This document shows, piece after piece, positions 1-60,634 of a stretch of 64,000 nt of DNA. The notes below the pieces were generated by a model, which did not search any database, had not been told where the DNA came from, and saw only the letters and a program-made list of their open reading frames with translations. A program made the position numbers and the translations under genes. Location of the stretch: assembly GCA_020632215.1 (NCBI GenBank), contig JACKFZ010000006.1, forward strand, positions 12,574 through 76,573. The letters run 5' to 3'. How positions within the stretch are numbered: position 1 is the stretch's first letter; every line of letters starts with the position of its first letter. The stretch is from Candidatus Nomurabacteria bacterium. GTDB taxonomy: Bacteria; Patescibacteriota; Minisyncoccia; Phycocordibacterales; JAACPR01.

Positions 1-539
1 ACAATCGTGGACGGGTCAAAGGTTACCCAATCAAGTAGTTGTATGATCAAAACTACTGCTCGGCAAAGGTGTCTGTTGTGATATATTTCGTCACAACATG
101 ATCCACCAACTATGCTATTCAGAATAAAGATCACAACGGTGAGATCAGGATTTGCACTAGTGAATCTCTCTTGACTCCTTTCTTCCATCATGTCAAAGAG
201 ACCGTCAACGTCTTTATCAGACGCACCTAATAAAAAGATCTTGAGTAGTTTGTAATCACCAAAAACATCCAGCCCAACAGACAGTAACTTGTGGCACAGA
301 TACCTTTTTATGAGCTCCGATCTGAAAAAAATTGACAAATCACCTGCATATAGATAATCCTTTTCATTCAAGCTTAGTAACCAAACAACCTTGCCAATAG
401 CTTGCATGATCGGACCACACCTAAAAAGTCTATCTATGTTGTCATCAGACAACTTCCCACGCAACATTGGAATTAAAAAAGCAAGAGTACCAATTACCAC
501 AAAGGTTATAGAAACCAATATTACAATAATTGTATTCAC
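1..539 (-). CDS. hypothetical membrane protein (partial; runs off the window start)
   Basis: Reverse-strand reading frame that is open from the window edge. A GTG start at 537-539 is preceded by a GGAGG ribosome-binding site (complement of 551-555). The N-terminus is a hydrophobic transmembrane segment (NTIIVILVSITFVVIGTLAFLIP). No recognisable family. Confidence 0.3.
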   Translation of the reverse strand, partial: MNTIIVILVSITFVVIGTLAFLIPMLRGKLSDDNIDRLFRCGPIMQAIGKVVWLLSLNEKDYLYAGDLSIFFRSELIKRYLCHKLLSVGLDVFGDYKLLKIFLLGASDKDVDGLFDMMEERSQERFTSANPDLTVVIFILNSIVGGSCCDEIYHNRHLCRAVVLIIQLLDWVTFDPSTI

Positions 540-45130: not shown

Positions 45131-45204
45131 AATTAAAATTATTATACCATTAAGAGTTTTAAATCTTCTACAAATTAAATAATAAAAGTGTTGATTAGTT
45201 TAGT

Positions 45205-45258: not shown

Positions 45259-46386
45259 GTCAAGTTCTTGCAACTCTCTCAAAGCTAAACCAATAGCAGT
45301 TGAAAATGCTAGTCCTGTATTTTCTAGAACACCTTGCAAAAAAGCAGGAGCTTCTAGACGACCAAATGGTTGTCCGTTTTCTACGGGTATTCCAAGTTGA
45401 TTTTGTGCCTGGTCTTTTAATCCTTTTATCATTGCTCCTCCGCCAACCAAAATAACTTTGCCAATATTTTTGTTACTTTTTTTCTGATAATTCATCATAA
45501 CAGTATTGGTGTCACTAAATATTGGAGACATGACTAACTCAATAATTTGACCGATTTGCTCGTCTTGCTCTCTGGTATTTTTACCAAAGTTTCTTTTTAG
45601 CTTTTCGGAAAAAGAAACATCAACGCCCATGGATTTTGAAATATTAAGCGTAACATCTTGAGAACCTCGATTGATAATATGAGAGTCACGAACAATTCCC
45701 CTCTCTACAATATAGAGTTTAGTTGCTCCAGCACCAATATCGCAGATCATGATTGGCGAATTATCACGCGGATCAATAACAGAACGAATGGTACTAAACA
45801 TTTCTACTTCAAAAAAAGAAGTACTGAGTTTGGCATTAGTAACAATAGAATTAAAGTCATTCAGAACGTTATTATGAATAGCCACAACTAACGCTTCGAA
45901 AAACTCAGTTTTGTTTTCGGCCATTTTGTTTTCATCGTCTTCATTTGCAATTTTAGGAATAATAAACCAGTCAAGAGCTACCTCTGAAATAGGGACCGGT
46001 ATATATTTTCTAGCCTCAATAGGAATCATCTTTGGCAACTGACTTTCATCTAATGTCGGAATTTTCATAACGGAAACCATACTAGACTTCATGGGTATAG
46101 CAACAGCACAATTGGTTGTAGAAGTATTTGCCTCTTTTAATACATCGTTCAGAGCATCGACAATTTGTTCTGGTTTCAGTTTAACAGCTCGTCCGATCTC
46201 TATACCACCATATGGTCCAAGCGCTAATTCACCATAAGTTTCTAGAACAGCTTGACCTTTTCTTCTTCTGATTTGAACAACCTTAATAGAGGCAGATCCA
46301 ATATCAATACCAAGCACACTTTGATCTTCTTTTTTTAAAAAAGATTTAAAGAAATTATGAAATGGATTTTCCATAGCAGTTACCAA
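45256..46386 (-). CDS. pilM: type IV pilus assembly protein PilM (actin-like ATPase)
   Basis: Actin-fold GIDIGSASIKVVQI...DIGAGATK. Confidence 0.75.
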   Translation of the reverse strand: MVTAMENPFHNFFKSFLKKEDQSVLGIDIGSASIKVVQIRRRKGQAVLETYGELALGPYGGIEIGRAVKLKPEQIVDALNDVLKEANTSTTNCAVAIPMKSSMVSVMKIPTLDESQLPKMIPIEARKYIPVPISEVALDWFIIPKIANEDDENKMAENKTEFFEALVVAIHNNVLNDFNSIVTNAKLSTSFFEVEMFSTIRSVIDPRDNSPIMICDIGAGATKLYIVERGIVRDSHIINRGSQDVTLNISKSMGVDVSFSEKLKRNFGKNTREQDEQIGQIIELVMSPIFSDTNTVMMNYQKKSNKNIGKVILVGGGAMIKGLKDQAQNQLGIPVENGQPFGRLEAPAFLQGVLENTGLAFSTAIGLALRELQELD

Positions 46387-46410
46387 ATATTATATCATTG
46401 AGATTATACA

Positions 46411-47067
46411 ATGTCTGGGTATAAGATATTAAAAATAGTGAAAAAAGTTTTTTTCTTTTTAATTGACTCTCTTTTCCCTCTTGATAAATTCTCAACAGAA
46501 TTAACAACATTAGATCTGCAACACTGGTTGGCAGAAGTAACAAAGCATGAACAATACTTCGATAATTTTATATATTCTTTTTTAGATTATAGAAAAGAAA
46601 TTGTTGAAAAAACTATTTGGCAAATGAAATTTAATAGGAATGCAGATGCTCTTCGCCTACTTGGGGAATTTATCAGTCAGGAGATTTTGAAAAAAATAGA
46701 TCGCCAACCCTTCCTCATCATTCCTGTGCCAGTTTTTAAAAATAAAATGAAGAGCAAAGGTTTTAATCATACAGAGTTATTGGTTCAAGAAATTCTTAAA
46801 TATGATCACGACAAAATATTTACCTATCAAAAAGATTTGATTAAAAAAGTTAAAAAGACAAAAGATCAAAAAGAAACTAAAAGTAAAAAAGAGAGGACAG
46901 AAAACCTAAAAAATGCTTTTCAAATTACTAACCCAAAACAAATTGCAAATAAAAATGTCATTATCATAGATGATGTTCACACTACTGGTGCTACTCTGAA
47001 TGAAATGAGAAAGATATTAATGAAAGCTGAAGCAAAGTATGTTATTGCTTTTGTAGTGGCACATTAG
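46411..47067 (+). CDS. ComF-like phosphoribosyltransferase-domain protein
   Basis: C-terminal PRTase motif VIIIDDVHTTGATL. The position beside the pilus genes is consistent with a competence role. Confidence 0.6.
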   Translation: MSGYKILKIVKKVFFFLIDSLFPLDKFSTELTTLDLQHWLAEVTKHEQYFDNFIYSFLDYRKEIVEKTIWQMKFNRNADALRLLGEFISQEILKKIDRQPFLIIPVPVFKNKMKSKGFNHTELLVQEILKYDHDKIFTYQKDLIKKVKKTKDQKETKSKKERTENLKNAFQITNPKQIANKNVIIIDDVHTTGATLNEMRKILMKAEAKYVIAFVVAH

Positions 47068-47096
47068 ATGAATAAAAAGGAAACCACCCGAAGTTT

Positions 47097-47780
47097 CTAA
47101 GACTCAGGTGGTTTATATAAATTATTCTCAATCAAAAAAGTTCTGGTTTTAGACTTCATCCGTTCAAACCGCTTCGACAGAGTATTAGCGTTTACAGGTT
47201 TGGAGAGTTTACGTGCCAAATAATTCACCTTGACCCCCCCAATAAAATGTTGGAAGAAAGCATCGACAATCTCTTTATCATACTCTTCCTTTAAAAAACT
47301 AAGTATATATGGTATGAGATCGTCGAATTCCAAACTAAAAGTCTCCGACACAATCAATGTATCTGCTGGATTCAAGCCATTCGAGAGGAATCCCAATCCT
47401 CCAGAAACATCCGGAAGTTCATACGACACAATCGGCACAAGACGATGCCTCCTAACTTTCTTCCTAACATGATTATTGCAGGTGAAATTTGTCACCTTCT
47501 TAAGCCATGCGCAGAAATTTCCACCGATTACATGAATTTCTGAAATCTTTCGCCAGACAGTAATTGATACTTCTTGAAAGACATCCTCATGATCAGATTT
47601 GTCCCAAACACGTGCACAGATAATTTGTTTCACCATAGGAGCGTAATACGCCATCAACTTATCAAAGTCATGTGTATTTCCATTCTTGGCAGATCTAATG
47701 AGTTGATGCTCTAGTTCTATAGAGAGAGGTTCTGTGTTCATTATTTTGTAAATTTCTAGGGGTTTACTTTGTTCTAACAA
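47097..47780 (-). CDS. sigma-70 family RNA polymerase sigma factor (ECF-like)
   Basis: Region 2 DVFQEVSITVWRKI and a C-terminal helix-turn-helix. Confidence 0.55.
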   Translation of the reverse strand: MLEQSKPLEIYKIMNTEPLSIELEHQLIRSAKNGNTHDFDKLMAYYAPMVKQIICARVWDKSDHEDVFQEVSITVWRKISEIHVIGGNFCAWLKKVTNFTCNNHVRKKVRRHRLVPIVSYELPDVSGGLGFLSNGLNPADTLIVSETFSLEFDDLIPYILSFLKEEYDKEIVDAFFQHFIGGVKVNYLARKLSKPVNANTLSKRFERMKSKTRTFLIENNLYKPPES

Positions 47781-47815
47781 AGAACCCTATCAAATTTTTT
47801 ACCAAAAAACAAAGT

Positions 47816-48694
47816 CTATTTCTTACCCAAAAAATCTCTCAGGTATTCTTCAAAATCTTTTTTCAAATCTTCCCTATCAAATGCAAATTCCACAGAAGCC
47901 TTTAGAAAGTTCAATGGATCTCCAGTCGTAAACCAATCCCCTTCTATTTTATGAAAAATAACTTTCTCACTTTTTGCCAATTCAATAATGGCATCTGTTA
48001 GCCACAATTCATTATCTTTACCAACAGCTAAACTTTCTATGATTGGTAATATTTTTGGTGTAAACAAGTATCGGCCACAAGCAGCAAGATTTGATGGTGC
48101 TTCATCAACTTTTGGTTTTTCAACAAAAGTTTCAACTTCATTTGTTGTCCCTTCTTTTATTTTTACAATTCCATATTTACTTGTTTCTTCTTGCGGAATT
48201 TCTCTAACACCAATAACAGCAGCTGCATCTGGATTTTGTTCCAAAGCTAATGCAAGCTGTTTACATACTGGCACTTTCGCTCTTGTAATATCATCTCCAA
48301 AAAGATAAAAGAATGGTCCATCAGAAACTATGTCAGCAGAAATTTTTAAAGGAGTTCCGTTTCCATATGGCATTGATGATTTTTGTCTTAGAAAGATAAA
48401 GTTTGCAAGTTCAGCACTTTTTCTCACTTCTGCTAAAAATTTAGTCTTCCCTGTCTTTTCTAATTGATCTTCAAGCTCAAAATGATCATCAAAATGATTC
48501 TCTGTAATGTGTCCAGTTTGTTTGGTCACAATGATAATATCCTTCACCCCAGAATCTGCTAATTCTTCTACTGAGTATTGAATAATAGGCTTGTCTATTA
48601 TTGGCAGCATTTCTTTTGGTTGGGCTTTGGTTGCAGGCAAAAAACGAGTTCCACTTCCCGCTGCTGTAATAATAGCTTTTTTTGGCATTTGCAT
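47816..48694 (-). CDS. galU: UTP--glucose-1-phosphate uridylyltransferase
   Basis: KAIITAAGSGTRFLPATKAQPKEMLPIIDKPIIQY. Confidence 0.85.
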   Translation of the reverse strand: MQMPKKAIITAAGSGTRFLPATKAQPKEMLPIIDKPIIQYSVEELADSGVKDIIIVTKQTGHITENHFDDHFELEDQLEKTGKTKFLAEVRKSAELANFIFLRQKSSMPYGNGTPLKISADIVSDGPFFYLFGDDITRAKVPVCKQLALALEQNPDAAAVIGVREIPQEETSKYGIVKIKEGTTNEVETFVEKPKVDEAPSNLAACGRYLFTPKILPIIESLAVGKDNELWLTDAIIELAKSEKVIFHKIEGDWFTTGDPLNFLKASVEFAFDREDLKKDFEEYLRDFLGKK

Positions 48695-48804
48695 GGTAAA
48701 AGCGATTCTATATTATTTTCACTAAATTATCTAGTCAGAAAATTTGCGGGCTACCCCGAGCCGGAACCGTATATGCCGTGTTATATGATGTTGTGCTGTT
48801 TTTT

Positions 48805-49494
48805 TCAATCAATAAACCTGAATGTTTTAATTATCCCCAAGTGAGAGTCATCATAATCTTGGAAACTAATTATATAAGATTTATTGGCTCGAGAAATAAA
48901 TATAAAACTTTGGTCAAGTCCTATTGCGGTTGTCATCACTAGTTTATTGCTACTAATACCATTGAGAGTATAGCTTTCTTGGCTAACTATCGAGCCACCA
49001 TAATAAGAAGGATTGTCTTTATACTCTTCGAGAAATTGCTCCAAAGTTTTATCTTCAACAGAAATCACTACTGATCCACCTCCTTCTGGCATTTGTCGCC
49101 ACCCAGGATATGAAATATAAACTTCGCCTTCCTTGTATCCCGTAACTTCCCAGTCGCAAGGATAGTCAACACTATAGCCGAACTCCTCATCGCTGTAAGT
49201 TTTCCAATTACCAGGCGTTACGGATACAGGTGAAGTTTGCTTTTTATCCTCTTCTTCCCGAGTGGCAACAGATTGCTCTTGTTTCATTGCATCCTGTAAT
49301 TCTTTAATTTGATTTTGTAAAGTAGTGATTTCTGTCTGTAACGATTGCTCAGTTTTATTTAGTGAGGTTTTTTGCCAAGCATAAACTGCGCCACCAACAA
49401 CAAGTGCTGTGATTAGTATAAAAGGAACAATCGTTATAATAGTTTTCGAACCAACAACAGGCTCGTTCGGTTGTGGAAGATTTTCGTTGTCCAT
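48805..49494 (-). CDS. hypothetical membrane-anchored protein
   Basis: Transmembrane segment followed by a coiled coil. Confidence 0.4.
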   Translation of the reverse strand: MDNENLPQPNEPVVGSKTIITIVPFILITALVVGGAVYAWQKTSLNKTEQSLQTEITTLQNQIKELQDAMKQEQSVATREEEDKKQTSPVSVTPGNWKTYSDEEFGYSVDYPCDWEVTGYKEGEVYISYPGWRQMPEGGGSVVISVEDKTLEQFLEEYKDNPSYYGGSIVSQESYTLNGISSNKLVMTTAIGLDQSFIFISRANKSYIISFQDYDDSHLGIIKTFRFID

Positions 49495-49651
49495 ATTATT
49501 TTAATTAATTGATTAGATTATAAGTGAAAGAAAAATTCAGCACAACATCATATAAAACAAGTATAAATACAGGTAATCAACCCAAGGTTAAAGAATATCA
49601 AAAGCCCATTATAAAATTGTGATTAGATCACTCCGATACTTTGTTTTTACT

Positions 49652-49845
49652 GCGGTGTTTTTTGAACGAAGTTCGAACATTTTTTGAGCAAAACCTTGAA
49701 AACTAATTTGGACTCGGCGGGGCAAACTATTTTTCTGGGGAAATGGAATTGCCCCGCCTCGGCTTTCTTCCCGCCCGCAGGAGGGGTCTGGGGAGGAATG
49801 CGGGCGGGATTTTGAACCTTTCCTTTTTCGCTTCCGAATTTCGTG
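49652..49845 (-). repeat. copy 1 (inverted) of the ~194-bp GC-rich structured repeat A
   Basis: Reverse complement is identical to 58467..58659 along the portion compared by eye (the ~130-bp core). Contains two long GC hairpins (tcccgcccgca...tgcgggcggga and gaggcggggcaa...ttgccccgcc). The track ORF 49647..49868 is most likely not coding. Confidence 0.8.
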
Positions 49846-49868
49846 CCAGTTGAAAACTGGCGCGCCAC

Positions 49869-50459
49869 CTAATAATACTTCAATTTTGAATAATGCAATT
49901 TGTCGTGTGCTTCAAACAATATCTTGATCGCTTTTTTTGCATTTTTTTCTATTTCATTTTGTAAAACACTTGATTCAGTCCACATAAACGCATTTTTTAT
50001 TGAATCTTTAAATTGCGGTCTCGTTCCTTTTTTGTCTGTTGTGTTTTCTTTGCTTATCCCGTGAACAAATTCATTCCTTAAATCAAAAAGCGTCACTAAT
50101 TTTTCAAATAAATCTTGATCAATAATTTTCTTGTTTTTTGCGGCTTCTAAAATTTTCCATCCAGTTTTTGTTTTCGCCGTTTCTTCATCAACTGGATTTT
50201 GATATGGCAAATCAAGCAATTTTGCAAGTTGTCGCTCTATTGTTACGGCGCACATTATAATACTTGCCACAAAATCGCCCACCAAAAAGGCGTGGCGCGC
50301 TTCTTCAAAGCAGGAATGAACATCGGGAGAAGAAAGATAGTCTTCATTTTCTGGGTTGTAATTGTCCAAAAGAAAACGCAAGCGCTCTTTTACCTCTTTT
50401 TCGTTACTCCGGATATAATCTTTCCAATACTGATCAATTTGTGTTTGGGTGTAGTGCAT
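49869..50459 (-). CDS. HEPN-motif protein (putative RNase) co-operonic with type I R-M
   Basis: R-x4-H signature RNEFVHG at residues ~129-135 of 196. Start codon lies 3 nt after the hsdR stop. No other domain recognised. Confidence 0.45.
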   Translation of the reverse strand: MHYTQTQIDQYWKDYIRSNEKEVKERLRFLLDNYNPENEDYLSSPDVHSCFEEARHAFLVGDFVASIIMCAVTIERQLAKLLDLPYQNPVDEETAKTKTGWKILEAAKNKKIIDQDLFEKLVTLFDLRNEFVHGISKENTTDKKGTRPQFKDSIKNAFMWTESSVLQNEIEKNAKKAIKILFEAHDKLHYSKLKYY

Positions 50460-50461
50460 AA

Positions 50462-53400
50462 TTAGATATCGGTGTATTTTTTAAAATTTTCCGCTTGCTC
50501 AAATATTTCTTTAAACACCTCATCTTTTGGCACAGGAGGATAGCCATTTTTATCAAGCGTAAGAATTAAATCAACTTTCAATTCGGCTTTGATATTATCT
50601 CTAGCTGACCAATCTGTGTATCTGGCTTTATCGTCGACAATTTTTTTAATCTCTTGCGACAATATAATCAATTTATCTTCGGGATATTCAAATTTATATT
50701 TTTCAGCAACTGCCTTCAAAATATCGTAAAAGGCTTTTTCTTCAAAATCTATCCCTAACCCTTCAAAAGATTTTCTTTCTTCTTGTAGTTGCTTGAATAG
50801 ATCAGCAAATTTATCTGCCACATCATCCAAAACATGACTTTGAAATACGTCAAAATCTTTTCGTTCGTTATAAAGTTCAATAAGTTTTTTTAGTTTCTTT
50901 GAAAAATCAACACCTTTAATTCGGTTTGTCTTCTTAAACTCATTAATAGCTTTTGCTAAAAGTTTTTGTAATAGTTTGATTTTCGTGTTTGGCAATTTAA
51001 TTTTTTCAATTTTTGCCAAATATTCATCACTAAAAATATCTGCGTTATTTTCCGGTTTGTTTTTATCAAGTTTAAATATTTCTTCTACTCCTTCACTAAT
51101 CAATGCTTCTTGTATCATCTGACGCACTTTTTCATTCATTTGTGCGGTATCCGGCGCATCTCCCTTGGTTAGTTTGTGAATAATTGATTTAATGGCAAAA
51201 TAAAAATGAATATAGTCTCGTTCAATCTGCGAAATTTTCTCACTTGCACAACAAAGATCATAAGCAGACCGCAACTTCTTCGTTATAGACATGAAGCGAT
51301 TCTCTAAATCAGCCGTAACTTGAACAAATTCAGCTGACCGATTCAAGCAATTCAATTTTTCCAAAGGAGAACCCTCAAAAAAAGGCTTGGTATCAAATCC
51401 ATGAAATAATTTTGAAAGCAAGTCGAGTTGATCTTTCACAATCCCCACCGCTTTATCTGCATCTGCAAAATCATCGCCATGCACCTTACTATATTTTGCA
51501 AGAGCAATATTCATGTTGCTTTTTATTCCAATATAATCAACTACCAAGCCAACTTCTTTACCTTCATAAACACGATTGACGCGAGAAATTGTTTGAATTA
51601 GTGAATGTTGTTGAACAGGTTTGTCAATATAAATCGCCTCCAAAAAAGGCACATCAAAACCAGTAAGCCACATATCAACGACAATAGCGATTTTGAAATT
51701 TGATTTTGCATTTTTGAACTGGCGATCAAGCTCTTTTCTATCTTCTTTTGTCCCTAGCATGTCATACAGCGCTTTTTCATCATCCTTATTGCGAGTCATC
51801 ACCATTTTAATCTTCTCAATTGGCTTGATTTCTCGCTTTTCCTCTGTAGTGAGTTTTGCGCCTTCCTCGCATGCTTTAATTTCCCCCCATTCTGGTCTAA
51901 GTGAAATCACTTCTTTATAAAAATCGTAAGCAATCGGTCGGCTAGAGCAGACGAACATAACTTTACCTTTGACGCTTGCTCCTTCCTCAATTCGCTTTTC
52001 ATAATGTTCAACAAAATCTGTCGCTAAAAGTTTCAATCTCTTTGGATCACCCAAAATAACTTCCATCTGCGCTACAGCTTTTTTGCTTTCTTCTATTTGA
52101 TATTCATTTGCTCCTTCTTCTGCGCATTTGGCATAGTACTCTTCAATTTCCTTCAATTTAGCCTCATTTAATAGAACCTTCGCTGCTCGTCCTTCATAAA
52201 CAATTCTCACGGTAATTTCATCTTCTACCGATTCTTTCATTGTGTAGGCGTCGGCAACTTCACCAAAAACAGACAATGTGCCGTCAATCGGCGTACCGGT
52301 TACGCCAACATAAGTCGCATTTGGCAAAGAATCATGGAGGTATTTTGCAAACCCATATTTAACTTCCACACCCTTATCGGTAACCTTTAATTTTTGATCA
52401 AGATTTATCTGTGTTCGGTGTGCCTCATCGGAAATACAAATAACATTTGGCCTATCAGTCAAAAGCTCCGTATCTTCAGTAAATTTTTGAATCGTTGTAA
52501 GGTATACACCACCACCTTTGATACCTTGTAAGTGTTTTCGCAAATCAGCACGACTTTCAACGCTCAAAATCTTTTCTTCATTGATAAAGTTTTTGGCATT
52601 GGTAAATTGCTCAGACAATTGATCGTCCAAATCGGTTCTATCGGTAATGAGTACAATTGTCGGGCTAGATAATTCAACGCTCTTCATCAAGAGGCGTGAT
52701 AAATACAACATCGCAAAACTTTTACCCGATCCAGTCGCTCCAAAATATGTTCCACCTTTTCCGCTTCCGGTTGGCTTCATGTTCACCTTTATGCTTTCAT
52801 AGAGCTTTCGAGCGGCGTAATATTGCGGATAACGACAAACGATTTTTGCTTCGCTTTTTGAAGTGTCGGGGAAGTAGATAAAATTATGAATAACATCAAG
52901 TAGCCTGTTTTTGTCAAACAATCCTTTAATCAAGGTATAGAGTGAATCAATACCCTCACTTGGTTCATCAGTATTATTTACTTTTCTCCACGCGTAGAAA
53001 AAATCATAAGGTGAGAACAAAGACCCCATTTTGTTATTCACGCCATCGCTTATGACGCAAAAAGCGTTGTATTTCAGAAGTTCAGGAATATCTCGGCGAT
53101 AACGAACGGTCAATTGAGTATAGGCGTCTTTAATCGTGCAATTTTCTTTGACGGCACTTTTGAATTCAAAAACCACCAAAGGCAAGCCGTTTATATACAC
53201 GATTCCATCAGGAATTCTTTTTTCAGTTCCTTGAATTTCTAATTGATTAACAATTTTGAATATGTTATTCGAAGCAGTTTCAAAATCCAAGAGTTCAATA
53301 TAAATATCTTTTTGACTGCGATCTTCTCTTTTGAGAGTAAAGCCGTCAGCAATCAAACGAATAATATCCCTGTTGCTTTCATACAGCGCCGAGCTTGGAT

Positions 53401-53608
53401 AGAGATCGAGTTTTCGCAAAATTGAATCAATTTCATTTTGCGTTATACCAACACCCGCATATCTATTTTGAAGAAACGCACGCAAATCGTCACGCAGCAA
53501 AACATCACTCATTTCTTTGTGAATGGTTTCTCCGTGATGGTGCGGGATATCCACTTCTCCAAAAAGTTCTATAACCGCTTGTTCTAATGTTTCTTCAGTA
53601 AATTTCAT
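50462..53608 (-). CDS. hsdR: type I restriction enzyme R subunit
   Basis: Walker A GATGSGKS, DEAH box ISDEAHR, helicase motifs, length 1048 aa. Confidence 0.85.
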   Translation of the reverse strand: MKFTEETLEQAVIELFGEVDIPHHHGETIHKEMSDVLLRDDLRAFLQNRYAGVGITQNEIDSILRKLDLYPSSALYESNRDIIRLIADGFTLKREDRSQKDIYIELLDFETASNNIFKIVNQLEIQGTEKRIPDGIVYINGLPLVVFEFKSAVKENCTIKDAYTQLTVRYRRDIPELLKYNAFCVISDGVNNKMGSLFSPYDFFYAWRKVNNTDEPSEGIDSLYTLIKGLFDKNRLLDVIHNFIYFPDTSKSEAKIVCRYPQYYAARKLYESIKVNMKPTGSGKGGTYFGATGSGKSFAMLYLSRLLMKSVELSSPTIVLITDRTDLDDQLSEQFTNAKNFINEEKILSVESRADLRKHLQGIKGGGVYLTTIQKFTEDTELLTDRPNVICISDEAHRTQINLDQKLKVTDKGVEVKYGFAKYLHDSLPNATYVGVTGTPIDGTLSVFGEVADAYTMKESVEDEITVRIVYEGRAAKVLLNEAKLKEIEEYYAKCAEEGANEYQIEESKKAVAQMEVILGDPKRLKLLATDFVEHYEKRIEEGASVKGKVMFVCSSRPIAYDFYKEVISLRPEWGEIKACEEGAKLTTEEKREIKPIEKIKMVMTRNKDDEKALYDMLGTKEDRKELDRQFKNAKSNFKIAIVVDMWLTGFDVPFLEAIYIDKPVQQHSLIQTISRVNRVYEGKEVGLVVDYIGIKSNMNIALAKYSKVHGDDFADADKAVGIVKDQLDLLSKLFHGFDTKPFFEGSPLEKLNCLNRSAEFVQVTADLENRFMSITKKLRSAYDLCCASEKISQIERDYIHFYFAIKSIIHKLTKGDAPDTAQMNEKVRQMIQEALISEGVEEIFKLDKNKPENNADIFSDEYLAKIEKIKLPNTKIKLLQKLLAKAINEFKKTNRIKGVDFSKKLKKLIELYNERKDFDVFQSHVLDDVADKFADLFKQLQEERKSFEGLGIDFEEKAFYDILKAVAEKYKFEYPEDKLIILSQEIKKIVDDKARYTDWSARDNIKAELKVDLILTLDKNGYPPVPKDEVFKEIFEQAENFKKYTDI

Positions 53609-53610
53609 AA

Positions 53611-54741
53611 TTATTTAGTCGTTAAAGTATCAACCACTCCTTTCATCAAAACCGGACACAAAGGTGTAATCATATTTTTTAAATCTTCATTGAGTTTTTT
53701 TCTTGATTCCAAAACATAATGAATGGCAACAATTGATTTTTGCACTTCAATATCGGGTATTGGCAATCTTACTTCGCACATATCCTCCCAGTTAAATGTT
53801 TCTCTAGCACTACCCCAAGAATGAAAACGCGCGTATCTATCAAAATCAGAACGAGTGAACCAAAGATAAAGAAATTCAGGCAATAATTCTTCTTTTTTTG
53901 TAATCTCAAAAACGGGATAAATTTTTGAAACGATAAAATCTTCTTCTGTATTTAATGAAATTGGAATTCTTTCTCCCATTCTCGCCGTATTAGGGTTGAA
54001 TACAAATTGACCAACTTTCAAAAGTTTATAGCCAGAAAGTTCTACATCAGTCATGTTAGCTTTTGGCTTTATCAAAATTTTATGGATTGATACACCTCTT
54101 ACTTTACTAAGGGGCAAACCATAATTTTCGTATTCAGATTGCTGAATATAATCACCCAACCTCTTCAAGTCTTTTTTCTTTGCCAAATCTTCAATAAAAG
54201 TATCACAAATCAATTGCAAATCATCCAGACTGCTCTCATAACATTTCTGATTGCGAAGTAGTTCGTTATAAACCGCCACAACATTTTTTTGAACCCCGAT
54301 ATCATCTGGAATTGGTATCTCAATTTCACAAAATCGCTCCCATTCCAAACCACCCCTAACACTGCTATCACTAACATACCAAGAATATCTATCAAATTCC
54401 GGTTTTTGGAAAATCATCATTAGATATTCGGGAAGTAGCTTATTCGAATCTAAAACTTCAAAAGTAATATATGCAGGAGAAACAAGCGCAGGTTTATCCT
54501 CTGAATATAAAGATATCGGCAATCTTTCATCTCTGCCAACGTGCATAATGTTGCAAGCAAATCTATCTTTTCTAACTATTTTGTATTTTGATAAATCAAG
54601 ATCGGTTTGATTTGCCACCGACGGCATATAATTCTTGGTGATATTGATACCCAAAAGATTGCTTATCTCTAAGTTCTTGTTTCGCTCGTCTACGAGTTGA
54701 ATATAATCGCCAAGTTTTTTATAATTCAATTTCATAGCCAA
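53611..54741 (-). CDS. hsdS: type I restriction-modification specificity subunit
   Basis: Two target-recognition half-domains of similar length, separated by a conserved helical spacer. Sits between hsdM and hsdR. Confidence 0.8.
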   Translation of the reverse strand: MAMKLNYKKLGDYIQLVDERNKNLEISNLLGINITKNYMPSVANQTDLDLSKYKIVRKDRFACNIMHVGRDERLPISLYSEDKPALVSPAYITFEVLDSNKLLPEYLMMIFQKPEFDRYSWYVSDSSVRGGLEWERFCEIEIPIPDDIGVQKNVVAVYNELLRNQKCYESSLDDLQLICDTFIEDLAKKKDLKRLGDYIQQSEYENYGLPLSKVRGVSIHKILIKPKANMTDVELSGYKLLKVGQFVFNPNTARMGERIPISLNTEEDFIVSKIYPVFEITKKEELLPEFLYLWFTRSDFDRYARFHSWGSARETFNWEDMCEVRLPIPDIEVQKSIVAIHYVLESRKKLNEDLKNMITPLCPVLMKGVVDTLTTK

Positions 54742-56299
54742 GATGTTTAAATGCCTCCATTAGTTTTTCTTGCGAATCCTTTTCCTCTGCAAGAATATTG
54801 GTGAATTGTTTTTGAATCCGCTTCATTTCTTTGTCGTAGTTAATTTTGCTATCACGATCAACAAATTCAATGTATTTGCTCGGAATGAGCGACCAATTAT
54901 TTTTCTCAATTTCTTCGATGTTTGCGCTATAGCAAAACTCCGGAATATTTTTGTAGCTTTTTTCAAAACCCTCTCTCTGCCAGTTGTGATATGTAGAGAC
55001 TACCTCTTGGATATCGGCATCAGTGAGCTGAATATACTTTTTTTCGTATTCTTCACCTTTTCGGCGTAAATCCATAAACAATATCTCATCTTGTCTGTTG
55101 CGGTATTTCACCATTGCACCATTATGTTCAATGCTTCTAGCTTGCTTGTTTTTATTAAGAATCCAGAGCGTAACACTAATATCCGTGCTATAGAACATAT
55201 CTCGTGGCAAAACGATAATTGCTTCTACAAGGTGATTTTTGATAAACTGTTTTCTTATTGCAACCGTGTCAGGATCTCCAAGTGCGCCATTGGCAAGCAA
55301 AAATCCGGCTACTCCATTTGAGGAAAGCTTGGATGCCATATGTAAAATCCAGCCATAATTTGCATTACTAACCGGAGGCACATCATATCCCGCCCATCGC
55401 GGATCAGTGGTGAGTTCATTTGCACCTCGCCAATCCTTTTGATTGAATGGCGGATTTGCCATTATAAAATCTGCTTTGAGATCTTTGTGTTGATCTTTGC
55501 CAAAAGTATCAGCGGCGGTTTCTCCCAAATTTGAAGAGATGCCACGAATAGCCAAGTTCATTTTTGCCAGTTTGTATGTAGTCGGAATACTTTCTTGTCC
55601 GTAAATCGCAACTTCTTTGGTGTTTCCGTGATGCGCTTCAATAAATTTTATTGATTGCACAAACATACCGCCGGAACCACAGCAAGGATCATAGATTTTA
55701 CCTTTGTATGGCTCAATAAGTTCAGCAATCAGATTGACTATATTTTTGGGAGTATAAAATTCACCTTTACCTTTTCCTTCTGCGATCGCAAACTTTCTCA
55801 AAAAATATTCGTAAATTCTGCCGATAATATCGTGGGACTTATCTTTGAGTGTATCAATTTTGTGAATTTCATCTAATAAGGCTCCGAGTTTTGTAGTATC
55901 AAGATTTAATCGTGAATAGTAGTTATCTGGCAAAGCGCCTTTGAGTGCAGGATTCTTTTTTTCTACAGTAAATAATGCCGTATCTATTTTTATTGAAATA
56001 TCACTTTGTTTGGCGTTTTTTATCAAATAACTCCATCTTGATTCTTCGGGGAGATAAAACACGTTTTTCATCGTGTAAAAATCCACCATCTCCAGATATT
56101 TTTCTTTACCCTCGGCGATAAGTTCATTTCTTCGTTCCTCAAATTTATCACTGGCAAATTTTAAAAATATCAAGCCGAGCACAACGTGCTTGTATTCAGA
56201 AGGCTCAACAGTTCCCCGAAGTTTATTGGCAGATTCCCAAAGAGATTCTTCAATACTCTTCTGCTTCTTTTCTTTTTTAGGTTTAGTAGTTCTTGTCAT
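54719..56299 (-). CDS. hsdM: type I restriction-modification N6-adenine DNA methyltransferase subunit
   Basis: N-terminal HsdM_N (LWESANKLRG), SAM motif I DPCCGSGGMF, and motif IV FIMANPPFN. Confidence 0.85.
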   Translation of the reverse strand: MTRTTKPKKEKKQKSIEESLWESANKLRGTVEPSEYKHVVLGLIFLKFASDKFEERRNELIAEGKEKYLEMVDFYTMKNVFYLPEESRWSYLIKNAKQSDISIKIDTALFTVEKKNPALKGALPDNYYSRLNLDTTKLGALLDEIHKIDTLKDKSHDIIGRIYEYFLRKFAIAEGKGKGEFYTPKNIVNLIAELIEPYKGKIYDPCCGSGGMFVQSIKFIEAHHGNTKEVAIYGQESIPTTYKLAKMNLAIRGISSNLGETAADTFGKDQHKDLKADFIMANPPFNQKDWRGANELTTDPRWAGYDVPPVSNANYGWILHMASKLSSNGVAGFLLANGALGDPDTVAIRKQFIKNHLVEAIIVLPRDMFYSTDISVTLWILNKNKQARSIEHNGAMVKYRNRQDEILFMDLRRKGEEYEKKYIQLTDADIQEVVSTYHNWQREGFEKSYKNIPEFCYSANIEEIEKNNWSLIPSKYIEFVDRDSKINYDKEMKRIQKQFTNILAEEKDSQEKLMEAFKHLGYEIEL

Positions 56300-56301
56300 A
56301 C

Positions 56302-58068
56302 TTATATTTTATTAAATGCCTTTCTTATAACTCCCGCCATGAGTTTTCTTCTTTCTTGGAGGAATGTATCATATTCAAGCTGATAAAAATTTTCTGGAAT
56401 AGCGTGCTCTGCCAGCATTTCTTTAATTTCGCTCTCGCCGAACCTTTTTTGCACCATTGCAAAATATTCGCTTGGTTTGTCGTCGCTGATTTCGATATTA
56501 TCTTCAAATTCCAAAAATGTCAGATTGGCAATCTGGTTTATTTTTGCCTTGTCTTTGTTCTTATCAAATCCATATTTTGAAATGAGATAATTTCGTGGGA
56601 ATATGTGATGTTTTTCCAAACGCTTCTTTTTAATCTTTAAAGACGGATCATAAAGATCGCCTACAAGTTTGCGAGAAAATAAAACTGGCGAGCCGAGCTT
56701 GTTGAGCGCGGCATAAAAAGCATTTGCCTCTGGGCTTCTTGCTGATGATGTTTCCATTTGCCCGACAAGCGTAATATCCCAAAAATCATTGGTTAAATTC
56801 TCACCAATTATCTTTTCAAGTCCGCTGATAAATCCGTCGTGGCTAAACTCTTTTATTCTGTTTAGATCCTTTTCAAAGGCGGTTTCTGGTGAAGAAGAAT
56901 ATCTACCTGTCAGAGAAGACATCACGAACCAGCGCCCGATAATTCTTTGCAATTCGTGATTTTGCGTATTGAAATTTTGTTTTCCAATAAGATAAAGAAT
57001 ATAGCTATACAAAACGGCATTTTTTGACGATATAAGTTCTTCATCTTTATATCCGCCACCAATAAGAATTTTCAGAAAACTTTGCCAATTCGTATTATCA
57101 AGGATAGTCGGCAAATTTAATTTCAATTTATCAAATTGATGCGTTCGCAATTCTTCTGAAAATTCTCCTGTTTCCATATCGCGTCCGCGAATAATGGAGT
57201 AGACATCTTTCATTTTTGCTCGGTGGAATGTCAGACCAACTAAAACGCGAAGCATATCGTCCGGATCGGGCTTTATCAAATAATTGAAAGACGAAAAACG
57301 AGTTTCTTTTTCTGGAATTTTTCTTGAATCAATACAAAACTGCTCAATTTCTTTCCTGCCCTCTTCCCAATAGACGGAAAGTAAAGTCAAAATGAAATCA
57401 GCTTGCGTCAAACTCACCCCTTGACTGTTTATGCGAACAAAAATATCCGAGACAATTTCTTCCTCTAAATTCGGGGCAATTTCAAGAGCCGTGAGAGGAT
57501 ATTTATTGATGTTTATAAGCGATTGAATGTTTGAGGAAATTGTCTTTTCCTCTTCCTTTGTGATTTCTCTTTTTTCTTTAAGTGCCGAAATGAAATTGCT
57601 AATGATAGCAAAATCACCCTCGCCAGACCAAAGAGCTGAAAGGTCGGGAATATATTCGGGGTCGCGATCGGTCGCCGCGTCGCCGACTTTGAAAAGTGCG
57701 TCTATTGGGCGAAAAGCAATTTTGATAGCTTTGCTTTCATAATCAGGGGTCAAAACTTCCTGATTTTTCATAACGGCAAAAAGAGCCGTCAATCTTTGCT
57801 GTCCGTCAATTATCAAAAATCTCGGAATTTTCCTTTTCTTCTCATCAAAGCCAATATTTTTATAATCACTGCGATTGGCATTTTCCCAGAAAAGCAAATA
57901 TCCGATTGGATAACCACGATATATTGAATCAAATAAATCTCTAACTTTTGAGATTTTTTTATACCAAACGAACGGGCGTTGAATGTCTGGCAAAGCAATA
58001 TCGCCAATTTCAATATCGTCCATTAGTTTTCCAATCGTATAATCTGTTGTTTTGAATACTTGTGCCAT
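56302..58068 (-). CDS. GmrSD-like type IV restriction endonuclease (DUF262 + DUF1524)
   Basis: N-terminal DUF262 with DGQQRLTAL and C-terminal His-Me finger EKHHIFPRNY...ANLTFLEFEDN. Confidence 0.7.
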   Translation of the reverse strand: MAQVFKTTDYTIGKLMDDIEIGDIALPDIQRPFVWYKKISKVRDLFDSIYRGYPIGYLLFWENANRSDYKNIGFDEKKRKIPRFLIIDGQQRLTALFAVMKNQEVLTPDYESKAIKIAFRPIDALFKVGDAATDRDPEYIPDLSALWSGEGDFAIISNFISALKEKREITKEEEKTISSNIQSLININKYPLTALEIAPNLEEEIVSDIFVRINSQGVSLTQADFILTLLSVYWEEGRKEIEQFCIDSRKIPEKETRFSSFNYLIKPDPDDMLRVLVGLTFHRAKMKDVYSIIRGRDMETGEFSEELRTHQFDKLKLNLPTILDNTNWQSFLKILIGGGYKDEELISSKNAVLYSYILYLIGKQNFNTQNHELQRIIGRWFVMSSLTGRYSSSPETAFEKDLNRIKEFSHDGFISGLEKIIGENLTNDFWDITLVGQMETSSARSPEANAFYAALNKLGSPVLFSRKLVGDLYDPSLKIKKKRLEKHHIFPRNYLISKYGFDKNKDKAKINQIANLTFLEFEDNIEISDDKPSEYFAMVQKRFGESEIKEMLAEHAIPENFYQLEYDTFLQERRKLMAGVIRKAFNKI

Positions 58069-58072
58069 ATTT

Positions 58073-58282
58073 TTATTTCATTAAATCATCAAGCGAAACG
58101 CCAAGAGCATCCGCAATTTTTTTAACTGTTTCAATGGTGGGGTTGGGAGTAGAGCCAGCTTCAATTTTGGCAATCGTATGAAAAGCCAAATCCGCCTTTT
58201 TTGAAAGCTGATCCTGCGAAATGCCGAGCTTGTTTCGGTATTTCTTTATATTGTCTGCGATTGTGGATTTTTCCTTTGACAT
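58073..58282 (-). CDS. XRE-family helix-turn-helix transcriptional regulator
   Basis: NIKKYRNKLGISQDQLSKKADLAFHTIAKIEAG. First gene of the operon, with a 4-nt gap to the GmrSD-like gene. Confidence 0.7.
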   Translation of the reverse strand: MSKEKSTIADNIKKYRNKLGISQDQLSKKADLAFHTIAKIEAGSTPNPTIETVKKIADALGVSLDDLMK

Positions 58283-58466
58283 ATTCGTATAGTTTTACTA
58301 TTATAGTTGTATAGTATTAAAAATATCACTTATCAATAGTTAGTATATGAAATTTTTAGCATTTAGTCAAAGAAAAATTTTAGGGAGTTCCTTAGTGTTG
58401 CCCGCGAATGGGTTGGGTGGGTCAAGGGCAACATCTTCTTTGGCGGCGCATTTTACTTTGCAAAAT

Positions 58467-58659
58467 ACGAAATTCGGAAGCGAAAAAGGAAAGGTTCAAA
58501 ATCCCGCCCGCATTCCTCCCCAGACCCCTCCTGCGGGCGGGAAGAAAGCCGAGGCGGGGCAATTCCATTTCCCCAGAAAAATAGTTTGCCCCGCCGAGTC
58601 CAAATTAGTTTTCAAGGTTTTGCTCAAAAAATGTTCGAACTTCGTTCAAAAAACACCGC
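58467..58659 (+). repeat. copy 2 (direct) of GC-rich structured repeat A
   Basis: Inverted repeat of 49652..49845. The track ORF 58347..58916 runs through it. Confidence 0.8.
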
Positions 58660-58789
58660 CAATTTTCACTTTTTGTGAAATCGTAAGAAACAGCCTCGGC
58701 GCAAAGCGCCTCGGCATGGTATTTTTCCGCAATTTTGAAGGCATTTTTGAAATCCAAAACCAAAGTGCGGTCGGCAATGCGGAAGTTCG
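58656..58789 (-). repeat. repeat B: inverted duplicate of the last ~134 bp of the serine recombinase gene
   Basis: Reverse complement equals 60273..60406. Ends in the hexamer ccgcca, which is the 3' end of tRNA-Ser. Confidence 0.8.
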
Positions 58790-58903
58790 CAGAGCGAAGC
58801 TCTGGCAAAATGAAATTTTGCAAACCAATCTTTTTTCTTTCGCCTTTGGCGAAAGGTTGAGCGTATTTTTCTTTGATTGCCCAAAAACTAACTATCAAAA
58901 AAT

Positions 58904-60634
58904 ATGGACAACATAAATTTACAAACCAAAAAGATTTTTCTCTATGCCCGTAAATCCACGGACGAACCCGAAAGGCAGGTTTTGAGTATTGAGGCGCAAA
59001 TGTTTGAATTGCGAGAATATGCCAAAAAAGAGGGATTGAATATCGTCCGTGAATTTGTGGAAAGCAAAACCGCCAAAGAGCCGGGCAGAGAGATTTTTAA
59101 TGAAATGGTTGCAAGCATAGAGAAAAATGAAGCCGAAGGAATTTTAGCGTGGCACCCCGATAGATTGGCGAGAAATAGCATAGACGGCGGAAGAATAATT
59201 TATCTAGTAGATACTGGTAAAATAACCACGCTAAAATTTCCCACTTTTTGGTTTGATCCGACACCGCAGGGAAAATTTATGTTATCAATCGCTTTTGGGC
59301 AATCAAAATATTATGTGGATAATCTTTCGGAAAATATAAGGAGGGGTATTCGCCAGAAATTGCGAAATGGAATATGGCCCGCTTGGGCGCCACTCGGATA
59401 TTTGAACGACAAAAATCAGAGAAAAATTGTGGTTGATAAGGAAAAAGCAAAATATATAAAGCGGGCTTTTGAAATGTATGCAACTGGCGAATACCCCCTC
59501 TCTCAAATCCGAAAGATTATCAATTCCTTGGGCTTGGTTGGCAAGAAAGGCAAAATGCTTTCCGTCTCCAATTACCAATATATGCTCAAGAACAAAATCT
59601 ATTACGGCGTGATTGAATACAATGGCGAATTGTATGACGGAAAGCACGAACCGATTATCACAAAGAAACTTTTTGATTCCGTTCAAGAAGTGATGATGAA
59701 TAAAAGCAAACCGAAAACGCCAAAATTGAAACCTTATGTGTATAGAGGATTTTTCCGTTGCGGAGAGTGCGGTTGCTTCATCACTACCGAAACCCAAAAA
59801 GGTCACAACTATTTGCGATGTACCAAGCGGAAAAATCCTTGCCAGCAAAAATATGTCCGCGAAGAAATCATCACTTCTCAAATAAAAAAAGAAATCAAAA
59901 AAGTTTCTTTGTCTTCCGCTTGGGCAAACGCTTCAATCAATTATTTTGAAAACGAAAAAATGAAAATTGCCCAAGCGGAAAGCTCTTTCGCCCAAAAAGC
60001 GAGAAATGAGCTGGTAGAAATAGAAACGAAACTTGATCGCTTGCTTGATTTACAGTTAGACGGCAATTTGTCGCAAGCGGAATATACCGCTAAAAAACAA
60101 AAGATCATTCTCGCTAAAAAAGATTTGGAAGAAAAAATCTCGTCTTTTGGGCGAAAGAGCAATAATCGGTTCGAACTTGCCATTGCCTTTCTAAAAGACG
60201 CCAACCAAGCCGAAAAATACGCTCAACAAGAAAATCCCGAAAGGATTCGGGATTTTCTCAAAAAGATTGGTTCGAACTTCCGCATTGCCGACCGCACTTT
60301 GGTTTTGGATTTCAAAAATGCCTTCAAAATTGCGGAAAAATACCATGCCGAGGCGCTTTGCGCCGAGGCTGTTTCTTACGATTTCACAAAAAGTGAAAAT
60401 TGGCGGAGAGTTAGGGATTCGAACCCTAGAAGGGCTATAAACCCTTACCTCGTTAGCAGTGAGGCGCTTTCGACCACTCAGCCAACTCTCCAAGTAGAGC
60501 AAAATGTAACATATTTTATTCTTTTTTTCTATCTCCATTTATATGCTATATTCTTTTATGGAAAAAACGCCCATGACAACAAGAGAGACCCTTCAAGGAC
60601 TCCCGTCCTTCGAATACTTGGTGGGTCTAGTTAG
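58904..60634 (+). CDS. large serine recombinase (resolvase/invertase N-domain, recombinase domain, zinc ribbon, coiled coil)
   Basis: Catalytic YARKSTDEPERQ...SIEAQ, zinc ribbon CGECGC...C, and a long coiled coil. The frame stays open through the antisense tRNA-Ser, so the true C-terminus is uncertain. Confidence 0.7.
   Translation: MDNINLQTKKIFLYARKSTDEPERQVLSIEAQMFELREYAKKEGLNIVREFVESKTAKEPGREIFNEMVASIEKNEAEGILAWHPDRLARNSIDGGRIIYLVDTGKITTLKFPTFWFDPTPQGKFMLSIAFGQSKYYVDNLSENIRRGIRQKLRNGIWPAWAPLGYLNDKNQRKIVVDKEKAKYIKRAFEMYATGEYPLSQIRKIINSLGLVGKKGKMLSVSNYQYMLKNKIYYGVIEYNGELYDGKHEPIITKKLFDSVQEVMMNKSKPKTPKLKPYVYRGFFRCGECGCFITTETQKGHNYLRCTKRKNPCQQKYVREEIITSQIKKEIKKVSLSSAWANASINYFENEKMKIAQAESSFAQKARNELVEIETKLDRLLDLQLDGNLSQAEYTAKKQKIILAKKDLEEKISSFGRKSNNRFELAIAFLKDANQAEKYAQQENPERIRDFLKKIGSNFRIADRTLVLDFKNAFKIAEKYHAEALCAEAVSYDFTKSENWRRVRDSNPRRAINPYLVSSEALSTTQPTLQVEQNVTYFILFFYLHLYAIFFYGKNAHDNKRDPSRTPVLRILGGSS
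60273..60406 (+). repeat. repeat B' (recombinase 3' coding end)
   Basis: Inverted partner of 58656..58789. Its right boundary coincides with the 3' end of tRNA-Ser. Confidence 0.8.
60401..60490 (-). tRNA. tRNA-Ser (anticodon GCU) with encoded CCA
   Basis: Reverse complement reads ggagagt...anticodon loop cTGCTAa...a long variable arm...T-arm GGTTCGAATCC...actctcc-g-cca. Confidence 0.75.

Follow-up and report, generated by a model that had tools for sequence, protein, structure and literature searches.

A genomic island at a tRNA-Ser gene of Candidatus Nomurabacteria whose large serine recombinase carries its attachment site within its own reading frame

Target sites at the 3′ end of tRNA genes are usual for tyrosine integrases. 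How, then, does the gene of a large serine recombinase (LSR) come to read through a tRNA-Ser gene on the opposite strand in a Candidatus Nomurabacteria bacterium? The locus lies in a stretch of 64,000 nucleotides, hereafter the window (GenBank assembly GCA_020632215.1, contig JACKFZ010000006.1, positions 12,574 to 76,573 of the forward strand; window coordinates are used throughout). Its open reading frame (ORF) 58904-60634 (+) encodes 576 amino acids and runs antisense through tRNA-Ser(GCU) at 60401-60491 (-). An earlier note on this DNA had taken the product for an LSR with a C-terminus dictated by the insertion context and had proposed 49.65-60.49 kb as one acquired element; absent from it were two inverted repeats, an internal inverted copy of the attachment site attP and the position of the crossover inside the recombinase ORF. 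Our analysis identifies window positions 49656-60406 as an integrative genomic island, put into the extreme 3′ end of tRNA-Ser(GCU) by the LSR. As a whole, the locus is probably best explained as an LSR-driven tRNA-Ser island with attP in the integrase gene, a target of one half-site and a conserved, inverted spare attP, whose role we infer from its arrangement.

By domains and fold, the ORF encodes a true LSR. Pfam assigns Resolvase (PF00239, E 1.8e-20) to residues 12-157, Recombinase (PF07508, E 1.2e-16) to residues 180-264 and Zn_ribbon_recom (PF13408, E 8.7e-8) to residues 280-332. The motif L-Y-A-R-K-S-T at residues 13-19 contains the nucleophile S18 of the Y-x-R-x-S signature (Y14-A-R16-K-S18). 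In the family alignment R13, S15 (numbering of the first aligned sequence) and neighbouring residues are invariant, as are the zinc-ribbon cysteines C282, C285, C302 and C309. An AlphaFold2 (AF2) model of a 91%-identical homologue contains a long antiparallel coiled coil (helices 334-381 and 387-437, pLDDT 75-91). A phmmer search of PDB sequences returned catalytic-domain fragments only, with low similarity to solved LSRs. Placing the protein required a fold search: the top 18 Foldseek matches in the PDB are all LSRs, the best being SPbeta (9dxh, E 7.5e-13), and they include LI (4kis), Bxb1 (9iu2) and phiC31 (9tep). The multi-domain arrangement differs, and TM-scores are accordingly low (0.2-0.3). 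An exact look-up of the 576-residue ORF retrieved no record.

The earlier identification as an LSR, based on the resolvase-type serine, the domains and the coiled coil, therefore holds, and so does the open frame through the tRNA, which both ARAGORN (gct, 60401..60491) and Rfam (55.6 bits at 60404-60491) find. In the Rfam scan of 48-62 kb this tRNA was the only match at gathering score, and two sub-threshold matches look like chance. The final family-conserved residues are W500-R501 (60401-60406). The frame does extend past the conserved region across the tRNA, but by 75 codons counted from there and not by the 78 first given. In 48 related loci the read-through tail measures 2-131 codons (median 27.5) and shows no conservation; as its length is arbitrary across loci, it is an insertion by-product and not a selected extension. 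Homologues end either in such arbitrary antisense-tRNA tails (WRRGRDSNPR...) or in a conserved element tail, WRCFLDEVRTFFEQNP, in agreement with a C-terminus set by the insertion context.

The ends of the island are defined by an empty site. A contig of the same species from the Logan assemblies (L091, SRR26387399) matches window 38805-49655 at 99.57% identity and then passes directly into window 60403-60471 (100%), and both matches share GCGG only. It reads the predicted empty site ...TTTGTTTTTACT-GCGG-AGAGTTAGGGATTCGAACCC and lacks the inserted segment 49656-60406, 10,751 nt. Two further samples of this species carry the occupied junction (L092 and L093), each contig stopping 30 nt into X, the left arm of the element (Table 1). 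All three contigs were located through a flanking PsbP-like protein; a scan of JGI metagenomes for the predicted empty site gave 0 matches. Comparison of the tRNA-Ser locus in relatives, which the earlier note had recommended, thus confirmed acquisition by yielding both alleles, but the right end of the element is the crossover at 60403-60406 and the tRNA body up to 60.49 kb belongs to the host. One gene order shared by distant relatives without empty sites, which would have spoken against acquisition, is not what we found: the same recombinase is associated with differing tRNA-Ser genes, flanks and cargo. GC content is slightly raised in the island (0.373 vs 0.352; same-size windows elsewhere 0.345-0.362) and separates it from the rest weakly. 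The right arm of the element, Y, rebuilds the tRNA 3′ end by supplying ...CCGCCA: the occupied allele reads ...CTCTCCGCCA from Y, the empty allele ...CTCTCCGCAGT, and the tRNA is scored intact. No displaced tRNA fragment (a direct repeat of 15-50 nt) is present at the far end, where the repeat is the 4-nt GCGG (49652 and 60403).

Both arms recur inside the island. X and its inverted copy X′ form a perfect repeat of 193 nt around the cargo, whereas Y and Y′ form a perfect repeat of 134 nt that encloses the recombinase gene. The overlap of X′ and Y′ is exactly 4 nt, CCGC. Three joints result, namely host trailer to X at 49652, Y to tRNA at 60406, and Y to X on the reverse complement of 58467-58789. 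This third joint equals the attP predicted from excision between attL and attR and lies inverted within the integrated element, between the divergent genes for a helix-turn-helix (HTH) protein and the integrase. Owing to this internal inverted attP and the 3′ end of the gene, near-identical inverted repeats enclose an integrase module (1.5 kb) on the one hand and a cargo module (8.6 kb) on the other. The attR site reads ...GTGAAAATTG-GCGG-AGAGnnnGGGATTCGAACCC and attP ...GTGAAAATTG-GCGG-TGTTTTTTGRWYGAWGTTCGAAC, while attL consists of arbitrary host sequence, then (T)GCGG, then X. All three and the empty attB share only GCGG, and the smallest overlap, CGG, was seen in one related locus (L035). 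Compared with the recombinase by BLASTP, the upstream minus-strand ORF had 41/43 identity to residues 456-498. Only this 43-residue repeat was significant in the window itself, and a longer decayed recombinase copy (codons 437-455) was not. Second tblastn matches to residues 437-498 at ~70% were obtained in L004, L013, L017 and other loci.

An exchange within GCGG or CGG falls inside the recombinase ORF. The native gene runs from Y into X and would here encode a protein of 517 amino acids, the last 16 codons of which, CFLNEVRTFFEQNLEN, lie beyond the attP crossover in the first 51 nt after CGG. Integration via the attP in the 3′ end of the gene leaves this tail at attL (49656-49706, with stop codon), and an intact gene 3′ end is kept in the internal copy 58605-58789 (-). 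About 20 of the 120 homologues listed end in WR-CFLDEVRTFFEQNP... and not in antisense-tRNA sequence. Throughout the family the element-encoded tail lies in the first 50-60 nt of X and follows the consensus R-[CS]-F-L-x-x-V-R-T-F-F-[ED]-[EQ]-N-P, and a distant Elusimicrobia group retains the pattern (RSFRxKVRHYFAxHP). Summed entropy over tail codons 9-14 is 2.2, 2.0 and 6.5 bits for the first, second and third codon positions, respectively (45 distinct X arms), with synonymous variants such as AAC/AAT, CCN and TTT/TTC. This codon pattern indicates that the element tail is under coding selection. In the AF2 model a confident terminal helix (residues 494-509, pLDDT ~86) spans the crossover. The native gene thus ends in a conserved C-terminal helix of 16-20 residues, and integration through this site detaches it.

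The helix comes after the DNA-binding domain DBD2, close to the region on which directionality factors act in other LSRs. Swapping this tail probably lowers or changes integrase activity, and if its loss does so, elements would be expected to accumulate in the tail-less state. A more far-reaching version holds that the integrase rewires itself. As attP lies within its own ORF, each recombination event would swap the C-terminal helix on or off, and the 1.5-kb module, flipping via the inverted spare attP and the gene 3′ end by the enzyme or by homologous recombination, would alternate between an intact, active and a tail-less, quiescent form. This would provide control of directionality or activity without a separate recombination directionality factor (RDF). 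In its target, the enzyme would moreover need one sequence-specific half-site only, the tRNA-Ser acceptor/T-arm. We put this version forward tentatively and consider it doubtful.

Specificity for the tRNA is apparent from the attachment sites. Over 32 nt, X holds 52 bits of information, Y 44 (coding), the tRNA arm 40 (computed over 59 distinct sites) and the host trailer 8. The X motif TGTTTTTTGRWYGAWGTTCGAAC occurs in all loci, and the trailers of unoccupied tRNA-Ser genes are mutually unrelated. With 8 bits in the trailer versus 40 in the tRNA arm, a second attB half-site is not recognisable and attB lacks the quasi-palindromic character. From these comparisons, target recognition appears to use the tRNA arm only; any tRNA-Ser, or an already occupied site, could therefore be hit, leading to tandem arrays. 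Counted from GCGG, the sequence TTCGAAC occupies +12..18 of the tRNA arm but +17..23 of X, and so is 5 nt nearer the core in the former. In LSRs an attB-type half-site has its DBD2 motif ~5 bp closer to the centre than an attP-type half-site does (PMC11722253), and the observed shift, read from the aligned sites, fits this standard geometry. Of 160 junctions (73 X, 87 tRNA), none combines two specific arms, be they X or tRNA. Left/right polarity is therefore kept, which favours the non-palindromic GG over CG as central dinucleotide.

Relatives of the recombinase are encoded in >538 GTDB species genomes, and locus details were obtained from the best 80 of them. These are mostly Patescibacteria of many named classes (~94-95% amino acid identity), together with Elusimicrobia (~62%). 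A protein search likewise returned many close homologues of 499-580 residues, many on contigs of 1.8-2.3 kb. Wherever enough sequence is available, the recombinase reads into the 3′ end of an opposite-strand tRNA-Ser gene, and near-identical enzymes target the anticodons gct, tga, cga and gga. The exception is a sub-clade of 69-76% identity (L049, L051, L062 and L065) that uses tRNA-Gln; L049 and L051 display the Y′/Y layout, and the contigs of L062 and L065 begin inside the gene. The Y′/Y repeat occurs in 54 loci from >50 independent assemblies, typically as 134-nt arms with ~1.48 kb between them; arm length and a spacing of 1483 nt are the same in L001, L004, L008 and others. X/X′ is also present in 19 of the 54 (155-403 nt, around 1.3-8.6 kb of cargo). 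Literature searches found no description of this recombinase family or its layout, which apparently is widespread and undescribed.

Metagenome assemblies fragment at these loci because of the nested repeats, which raises the question of whether the layout arose during assembly of mixed integrated and excised forms. Many family contigs break in repeats, and those of 1.8-2.3 kb could be ambiguous graph traversals. However, the layout recurs in >50 assemblies made with various assemblers from various samples, and simple excision and integration would give direct, not inverted, junctions. Median arm identity is 100% for Y and 98.7% for X within a locus, compared with 88% and 63% between loci, and several loci have imperfect arms (85-99% identical) that cannot come from one collapsed sequence. 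A contig of 1.06 Mb (L001) carries two copies of the element, and a remnant is found in a closed genome. On the strength of the many assemblies, the long contig and the non-identical arms we rejected an assembly artefact, the least probable of the explanations considered.

Most integrated elements share the configuration of the window: right-hand junctions in the unbiased GTDB set lead into tRNA-Ser in ~58 of 66 cases and into X in three. The rarer state is represented by L084, in which tRNA-Ser(+) is followed by a diverged Y′, the recombinase gene, Y, X and the HTH gene (+); compared with the window, this recombinase module is inverted, and its enzyme has the native tail. As the arms of L084 are diverged, this flip is not an assembly ambiguity. 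L043 begins in the same way, and L097:9338-12014, from a closed genome (CP129470.1), is a recombinase-less deletion derivative of such a state. It consists of an intact tRNA-Ser(CGA), ~250 nt, a duplicated tRNA 3′ fragment, 45 nt of Y′, distal X, HTH and GmrSD genes, and its deletion joint lies at GCCTCGGC, common to Y′ and X. The cargo module is flipped in L044 and L045, where the HTH gene lies at the far cargo end, and in L085/L089 compared with L086-L088 for one identical recombinase. These orientations were compared across assemblies, and the comparison fits enzymatic and homologous recombination alike.

An invertible segment with its own recombinase resembles the H-segment of Salmonella Hin, and the cargo consists mostly of restriction-modification (R-M) genes. 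Inversion of the recombinase module might accordingly act as a phase-variation switch that toggles the restriction or defence cargo. Yet the promoter-like sites of the cargo lie inside the cargo module beside the HTH gene, unmoved by a 1.5-kb inversion, and cargo in other loci also comprises transporters, GreA, a carbamoyltransferase and a radical SAM enzyme. The unmoved sites and the non-defence cargo led us to reject this switch, which we consider very unlikely.

In the course of events that we favour for an LSR-driven island, Y-X (attP) recombines with trailer-tRNA (attB) by an exchange within GCGG, narrowed to CGG by L035. The excised form would be a circle with two inverted attP sites, as in the layout of the 2-micron plasmid. 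Integration via the attP at the gene 3′ end, or inversion of the integrase module, would produce the common tail-less state, to which the window belongs. Integration via the spare attP, or the reverse flip, would give the rarer state with an intact integrase gene reading into Y-X. The modules might flip by homologous or by site-specific recombination, and homologous copy correction could hold the repeats identical.

Repeated use of the same target may have left further traces. L022:232-7782 is a tandem array in which recombinase 1 (94% identical to that of the window) leads through Y into X, followed by cargo, X′, Y2′, recombinase 2 (52%) and tRNA-Ser(CGA), so that one cargo module is common to two different integrases. 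Y-like remnants lie at attL in L008, L028, L029 and L040. Together, these loci would indicate that elements have integrated where a site was already occupied. Beside occupied sites in L003:2367-2442 and L039:1737-2189 there are additional tRNA-Ser copies, partial or duplicated, as well as a Y remnant, which suggest repeated insertion and decay at the same tRNA. In L027:9661-11596 the recombinase module lies between two inverted tRNA-Ser(GGA) copies with different Y variants. Such a structure could have arisen if the internal attP recombined with a second tRNA-Ser, or by cassette exchange, and could signal a tRNA-linked chromosome rearrangement.

The main rival to a functional spare attP is a functionless relic, left by a former tandem array or by a second recombinase copy in inverted orientation and kept identical only by gene conversion in an ordinary one-attP island. 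Diverged homology to codons 437-455 beside the perfect repeat in several loci is what a decayed gene copy would leave, arrays and deletion derivatives are common (L022, L085 and L097), and passive homogenisation of inverted repeats is known. Nevertheless, the geometry (134-nt arm, ~1.48-kb spacer, site between HTH and recombinase genes) persists down to 61% identity, into Elusimicrobia and the tRNA-Gln sub-clade. The arms co-vary within each element though X differs by ~37% between elements, and L084 recombined at its internal site despite a diverged Y arm. A relic is expected to be lost often, yet the spare copy is found in nearly all loci with upstream sequence. A mere relic is a possibility, though in our opinion a rather improbable one.

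Alternatively, the integrase might bind the spare attP as an operator and repress the divergent HTH and recombinase genes, as the Tn3/gamma-delta resolvase does at res. The site indeed lies in a divergent intergenic region of 620 nt, flanked by promoter-like sites. The HTH gene adjoins it, divergent from the recombinase gene, in nearly all related loci with upstream sequence (~24); the cargo is flipped in L044 and L045. Binding needs ~50 bp, however, and not a perfect repeat of 327 bp. Moreover, an operator leaves the matching X copy at the far cargo end unexplained, and the promoter scan was not above shuffled expectation (7 found vs 5.1 expected). We regard an operator as unlikely to account for the site, but such a role and an LSR-driven island with a spare attP are compatible with each other.

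Finally, the inverted arms could serve a single-stranded stage after DNA uptake, in which X pairs with X′ and Y′ with Y to form a duplex attP, comparable to the attP of CTX phage or integron attC sites. The stems would abut exactly at the core, given the 4-nt overlap of the arms, competence/type IV pilus genes are located nearby in the host, and the element is without transfer genes. On the other hand, serine recombinases cut both strands of duplex sites with no single-stranded substrate known, and the element already contains a complete duplex attP. We judge such a stage highly improbable.

Several points weigh against an LSR-driven island with the mechanism outlined above. Most integrated copies are tail-less and yet keep intact ORFs, so that loss of the tail may leave the protein fully functional. 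A circular form was not observed; in short contigs its junction would look the same as the internal site. Orientation in short-read assemblies may be arbitrary where the repeat is at least as long as k, and several of the contigs reading into X are only 1.8-2.3 kb long. The quality of the AF2 model is moderate (mean pLDDT 73, 22 sequences). An RDF was not identified; among small partners of the recombinase, the 69-residue HTH protein alone is conserved. LSRs are not known either to accept a target with one recognisable half-site or to recombine attP with attR, and the arrays could have other histories.

The cargo of the window consists of a type I R-M system, a GmrSD-type enzyme and two smaller genes (Table 1).

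Table 1. Attachment sites, repeat arms and genes of the island in window coordinates
Feature	Position	Strand	Remarks
attL core GCGG (host trailer L1 / arm X)	49652..49655	.	only 4 nt common to L091 and window at joint
X arm (P′-type), left repeat copy	49652..49844	+	100% complementary to 58467-58659
Cargo gene, 196 aa, no assigned function	49869..50459	-	without Pfam or PADLOC match; same cargo in L098, L099, L101, L102
Type I restriction R subunit hsdR	50462..53608	-	Pfam HSDR_N, SWI2_SNF2, T1RH-like_C; PADLOC REase_I 1228 bits
Type I specificity subunit hsdS	53611..54741	-	Pfam Methylase_S; PADLOC Specificity_I E 2e-105
Type I methyltransferase hsdM	54719..56299	-	Pfam HsdM_N, N6_Mtase; PADLOC MTase_I E 8e-145
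GmrSD-type (type IV) restriction enzyme	56302..58068	-	Pfam GmrSD_N E 1.6e-31, GmrSD_C; PADLOC HEC-05
XRE/controller-type HTH, 69 aa, first cargo-module gene, divergent from recombinase	58073..58282	-	Pfam HTH_3 E 3e-17; PADLOC Control_protein E 3e-11
X′ arm, inverted X including tail-coding 58605-58655 (-)	58467..58659	-	minus-strand translation ...SENWRCFLNEVRTFFEQNLEN*
Core CCGC of internal inverted attP copy (X′ / Y′)	58656..58659	.	overlap of the two repeat families
Y′ arm, inverted last 44 conserved recombinase codons and core	58656..58789	-	100% complementary to 60273-60406
Unique region upstream of recombinase start	58790..58903	+	several related loci: weak inverted homology to codons 437-455
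Large serine recombinase ORF, integrated form	58904..60634	+	aa 1-501 family-conserved; aa 502-576 antisense tRNA and host DNA
Y arm (P-type)	60273..60406	+	recombinase codons ~458-501
Host tRNA-Ser(GCU), intact	60401..60491	-	body = B′-type target arm GAGAGnnnGGGATTCGAACCC; ARAGORN, Rfam 55.6 bits
attR core GCGG	60403..60406	.	tRNA strand CCGC = last two acceptor-stem bases, discriminator G, first C of CCA

Type I, II, IIG and III R-M systems, GmrSD and AAA_13 proteins make up most of the cargo of other loci. The cargo module of the window together with X is 100% identical over 8.8 kb to L099:1-8817 (GCA_020632355.1, JACKFS010000004.1), where the host flank differs and X′ is followed by CCGCCA-TTCTTAATGC...; this points to a very recent transfer between genomes, or populations, of the same study. 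With variations, the same cargo recurs in L098-L104. A prophage was considered as well and dropped, as viral contigs gave one distant match (58% identity) and the island is without phage genes. Directly upstream of the insertion site, at ~38.8-47 kb, a type IV pilus / type II secretion system-like cluster (PilM, PilO, two T2SSE ATPases and T2SSF), annotated through L091, may be relevant to DNA uptake by the host, whose island is without transfer genes.

Some features of the arms and the intergenic region deserve mention in their own right. The X arm has a GC content of 0.50 compared with 0.35 for the genome and contains GC-rich hairpins at 49715-49830 (inverted copy 58480-58595), GGCGGGGCAA...TTGCCCCGCC and CCCGCCCGCAGG...GCGGGCGGG, located 3′ of the stop codon of the detached tail. 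They matched no Rfam family in the scan of 48-62 kb and were not flagged by a simple terminator scan. The recombinase leader (58845-58886) forms an imperfect 42-nt inverted repeat (71%) with 59293-59334 (codons ~131-143); the pair, likewise 406 nt apart, recurs in L001 and L002 and may simply be inherited. In the promoter scan, a strong sigma-70-like site at 58276-58304 (+) (TTGACA-17-TATTAT, 11/12) overlaps the HTH start codon and points through X′ and Y′ into the recombinase gene, back-to-back with promoter-like sites of the HTH gene running from 58370 to 58342 and from 58329 to 58300 (-). A transcript from the plus-strand site would have Y′ at the 5′ end and Y close to the 3′ end, and with them 134 nt of perfectly self-complementary sequence.

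Few plasmids or conjugative elements are known from Patescibacteria (the candidate phyla radiation, CPR), and the family therefore offers a concrete mechanism for horizontal gene flow in these organisms. It seems to be a major vehicle for R-M and other defence genes across many Patescibacteria lineages and also in Elusimicrobia, and could explain tRNA-linked rearrangements as well. Serine integrases are leading tools for large DNA insertion. If our interpretation is true, the family would contribute new design principles, namely tolerance of an arbitrary second half-site, a universally conserved tRNA arm as target and possibly self-regulation through a rewritten C-terminus.

Among known systems, the LSRs of phages and of integrative and conjugative elements are the closest in architecture. 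The integrases of phiC31, Bxb1 and A118/LI, SPbeta SprA and TP901-1 have the same fold and the same order of domains, namely resolvase, recombinase and a zinc ribbon into which a coiled coil is inserted. Short att sites, a crossover of few bases and the ~5-bp offset between attB and attP motifs are common to both groups as well (PMC11722253). In contrast to these LSRs, the family described here has its attP inside the integrase ORF with a C-terminal helix swapped on integration, one conserved attB arm, a tRNA 3′ end as target and a second, inverted attP inside the element. Such a location of attP has a parallel in the SSV1-type integrases of archaea, where attP lies in the integrase gene, the target is a tRNA gene and the integrase gene is split on integration and restored on excision. 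However, these are tyrosine recombinases of archaeal viruses and plasmids from which a large part of the gene is removed, whereas here the last 16-20 codons only are detached and an intact spare 3′ end is retained in inverted orientation.

The bracketing of the recombinase segment by inverted repeats with crossover at the repeat ends, both orientations of which exist in nature (L084 and L043 vs the majority), is reminiscent of Hin and Gin. Those small invertases have a C-terminal HTH, a Fis-dependent enhancer and 26-bp sites, in contrast to the large-serine architecture and the 134-400-nt repeats of the present family, where no switched promoter or alternative gene is evident except the 3′ end of the recombinase gene itself. 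In the yeast 2-micron plasmid (FLP/FRT), as in the predicted circle, long identical inverted repeats, each with a recombination site, set apart two unique segments, one of which encodes the recombinase. FLP, however, is a tyrosine recombinase that serves copy-number amplification of a replicating plasmid; the likeness concerns the layout only, and no replication functions were observed here. As in Islander-type islands, insertion occurs at a tRNA 3′ end, the tRNA gene is restored, the integrase gene adjoins it and the cargo serves defence, but Islanders use tyrosine integrases, whereas the present enzyme is of the serine type, with a shared core of 3-4 nt, no displaced tRNA fragment and four tRNA-Ser isoacceptors as targets. 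Lastly, the pTN3 integrase causes tRNA-linked flipping of the chromosome (PMC5495485), and some loci of the family likewise suggest recombination between tRNA copies (L027).

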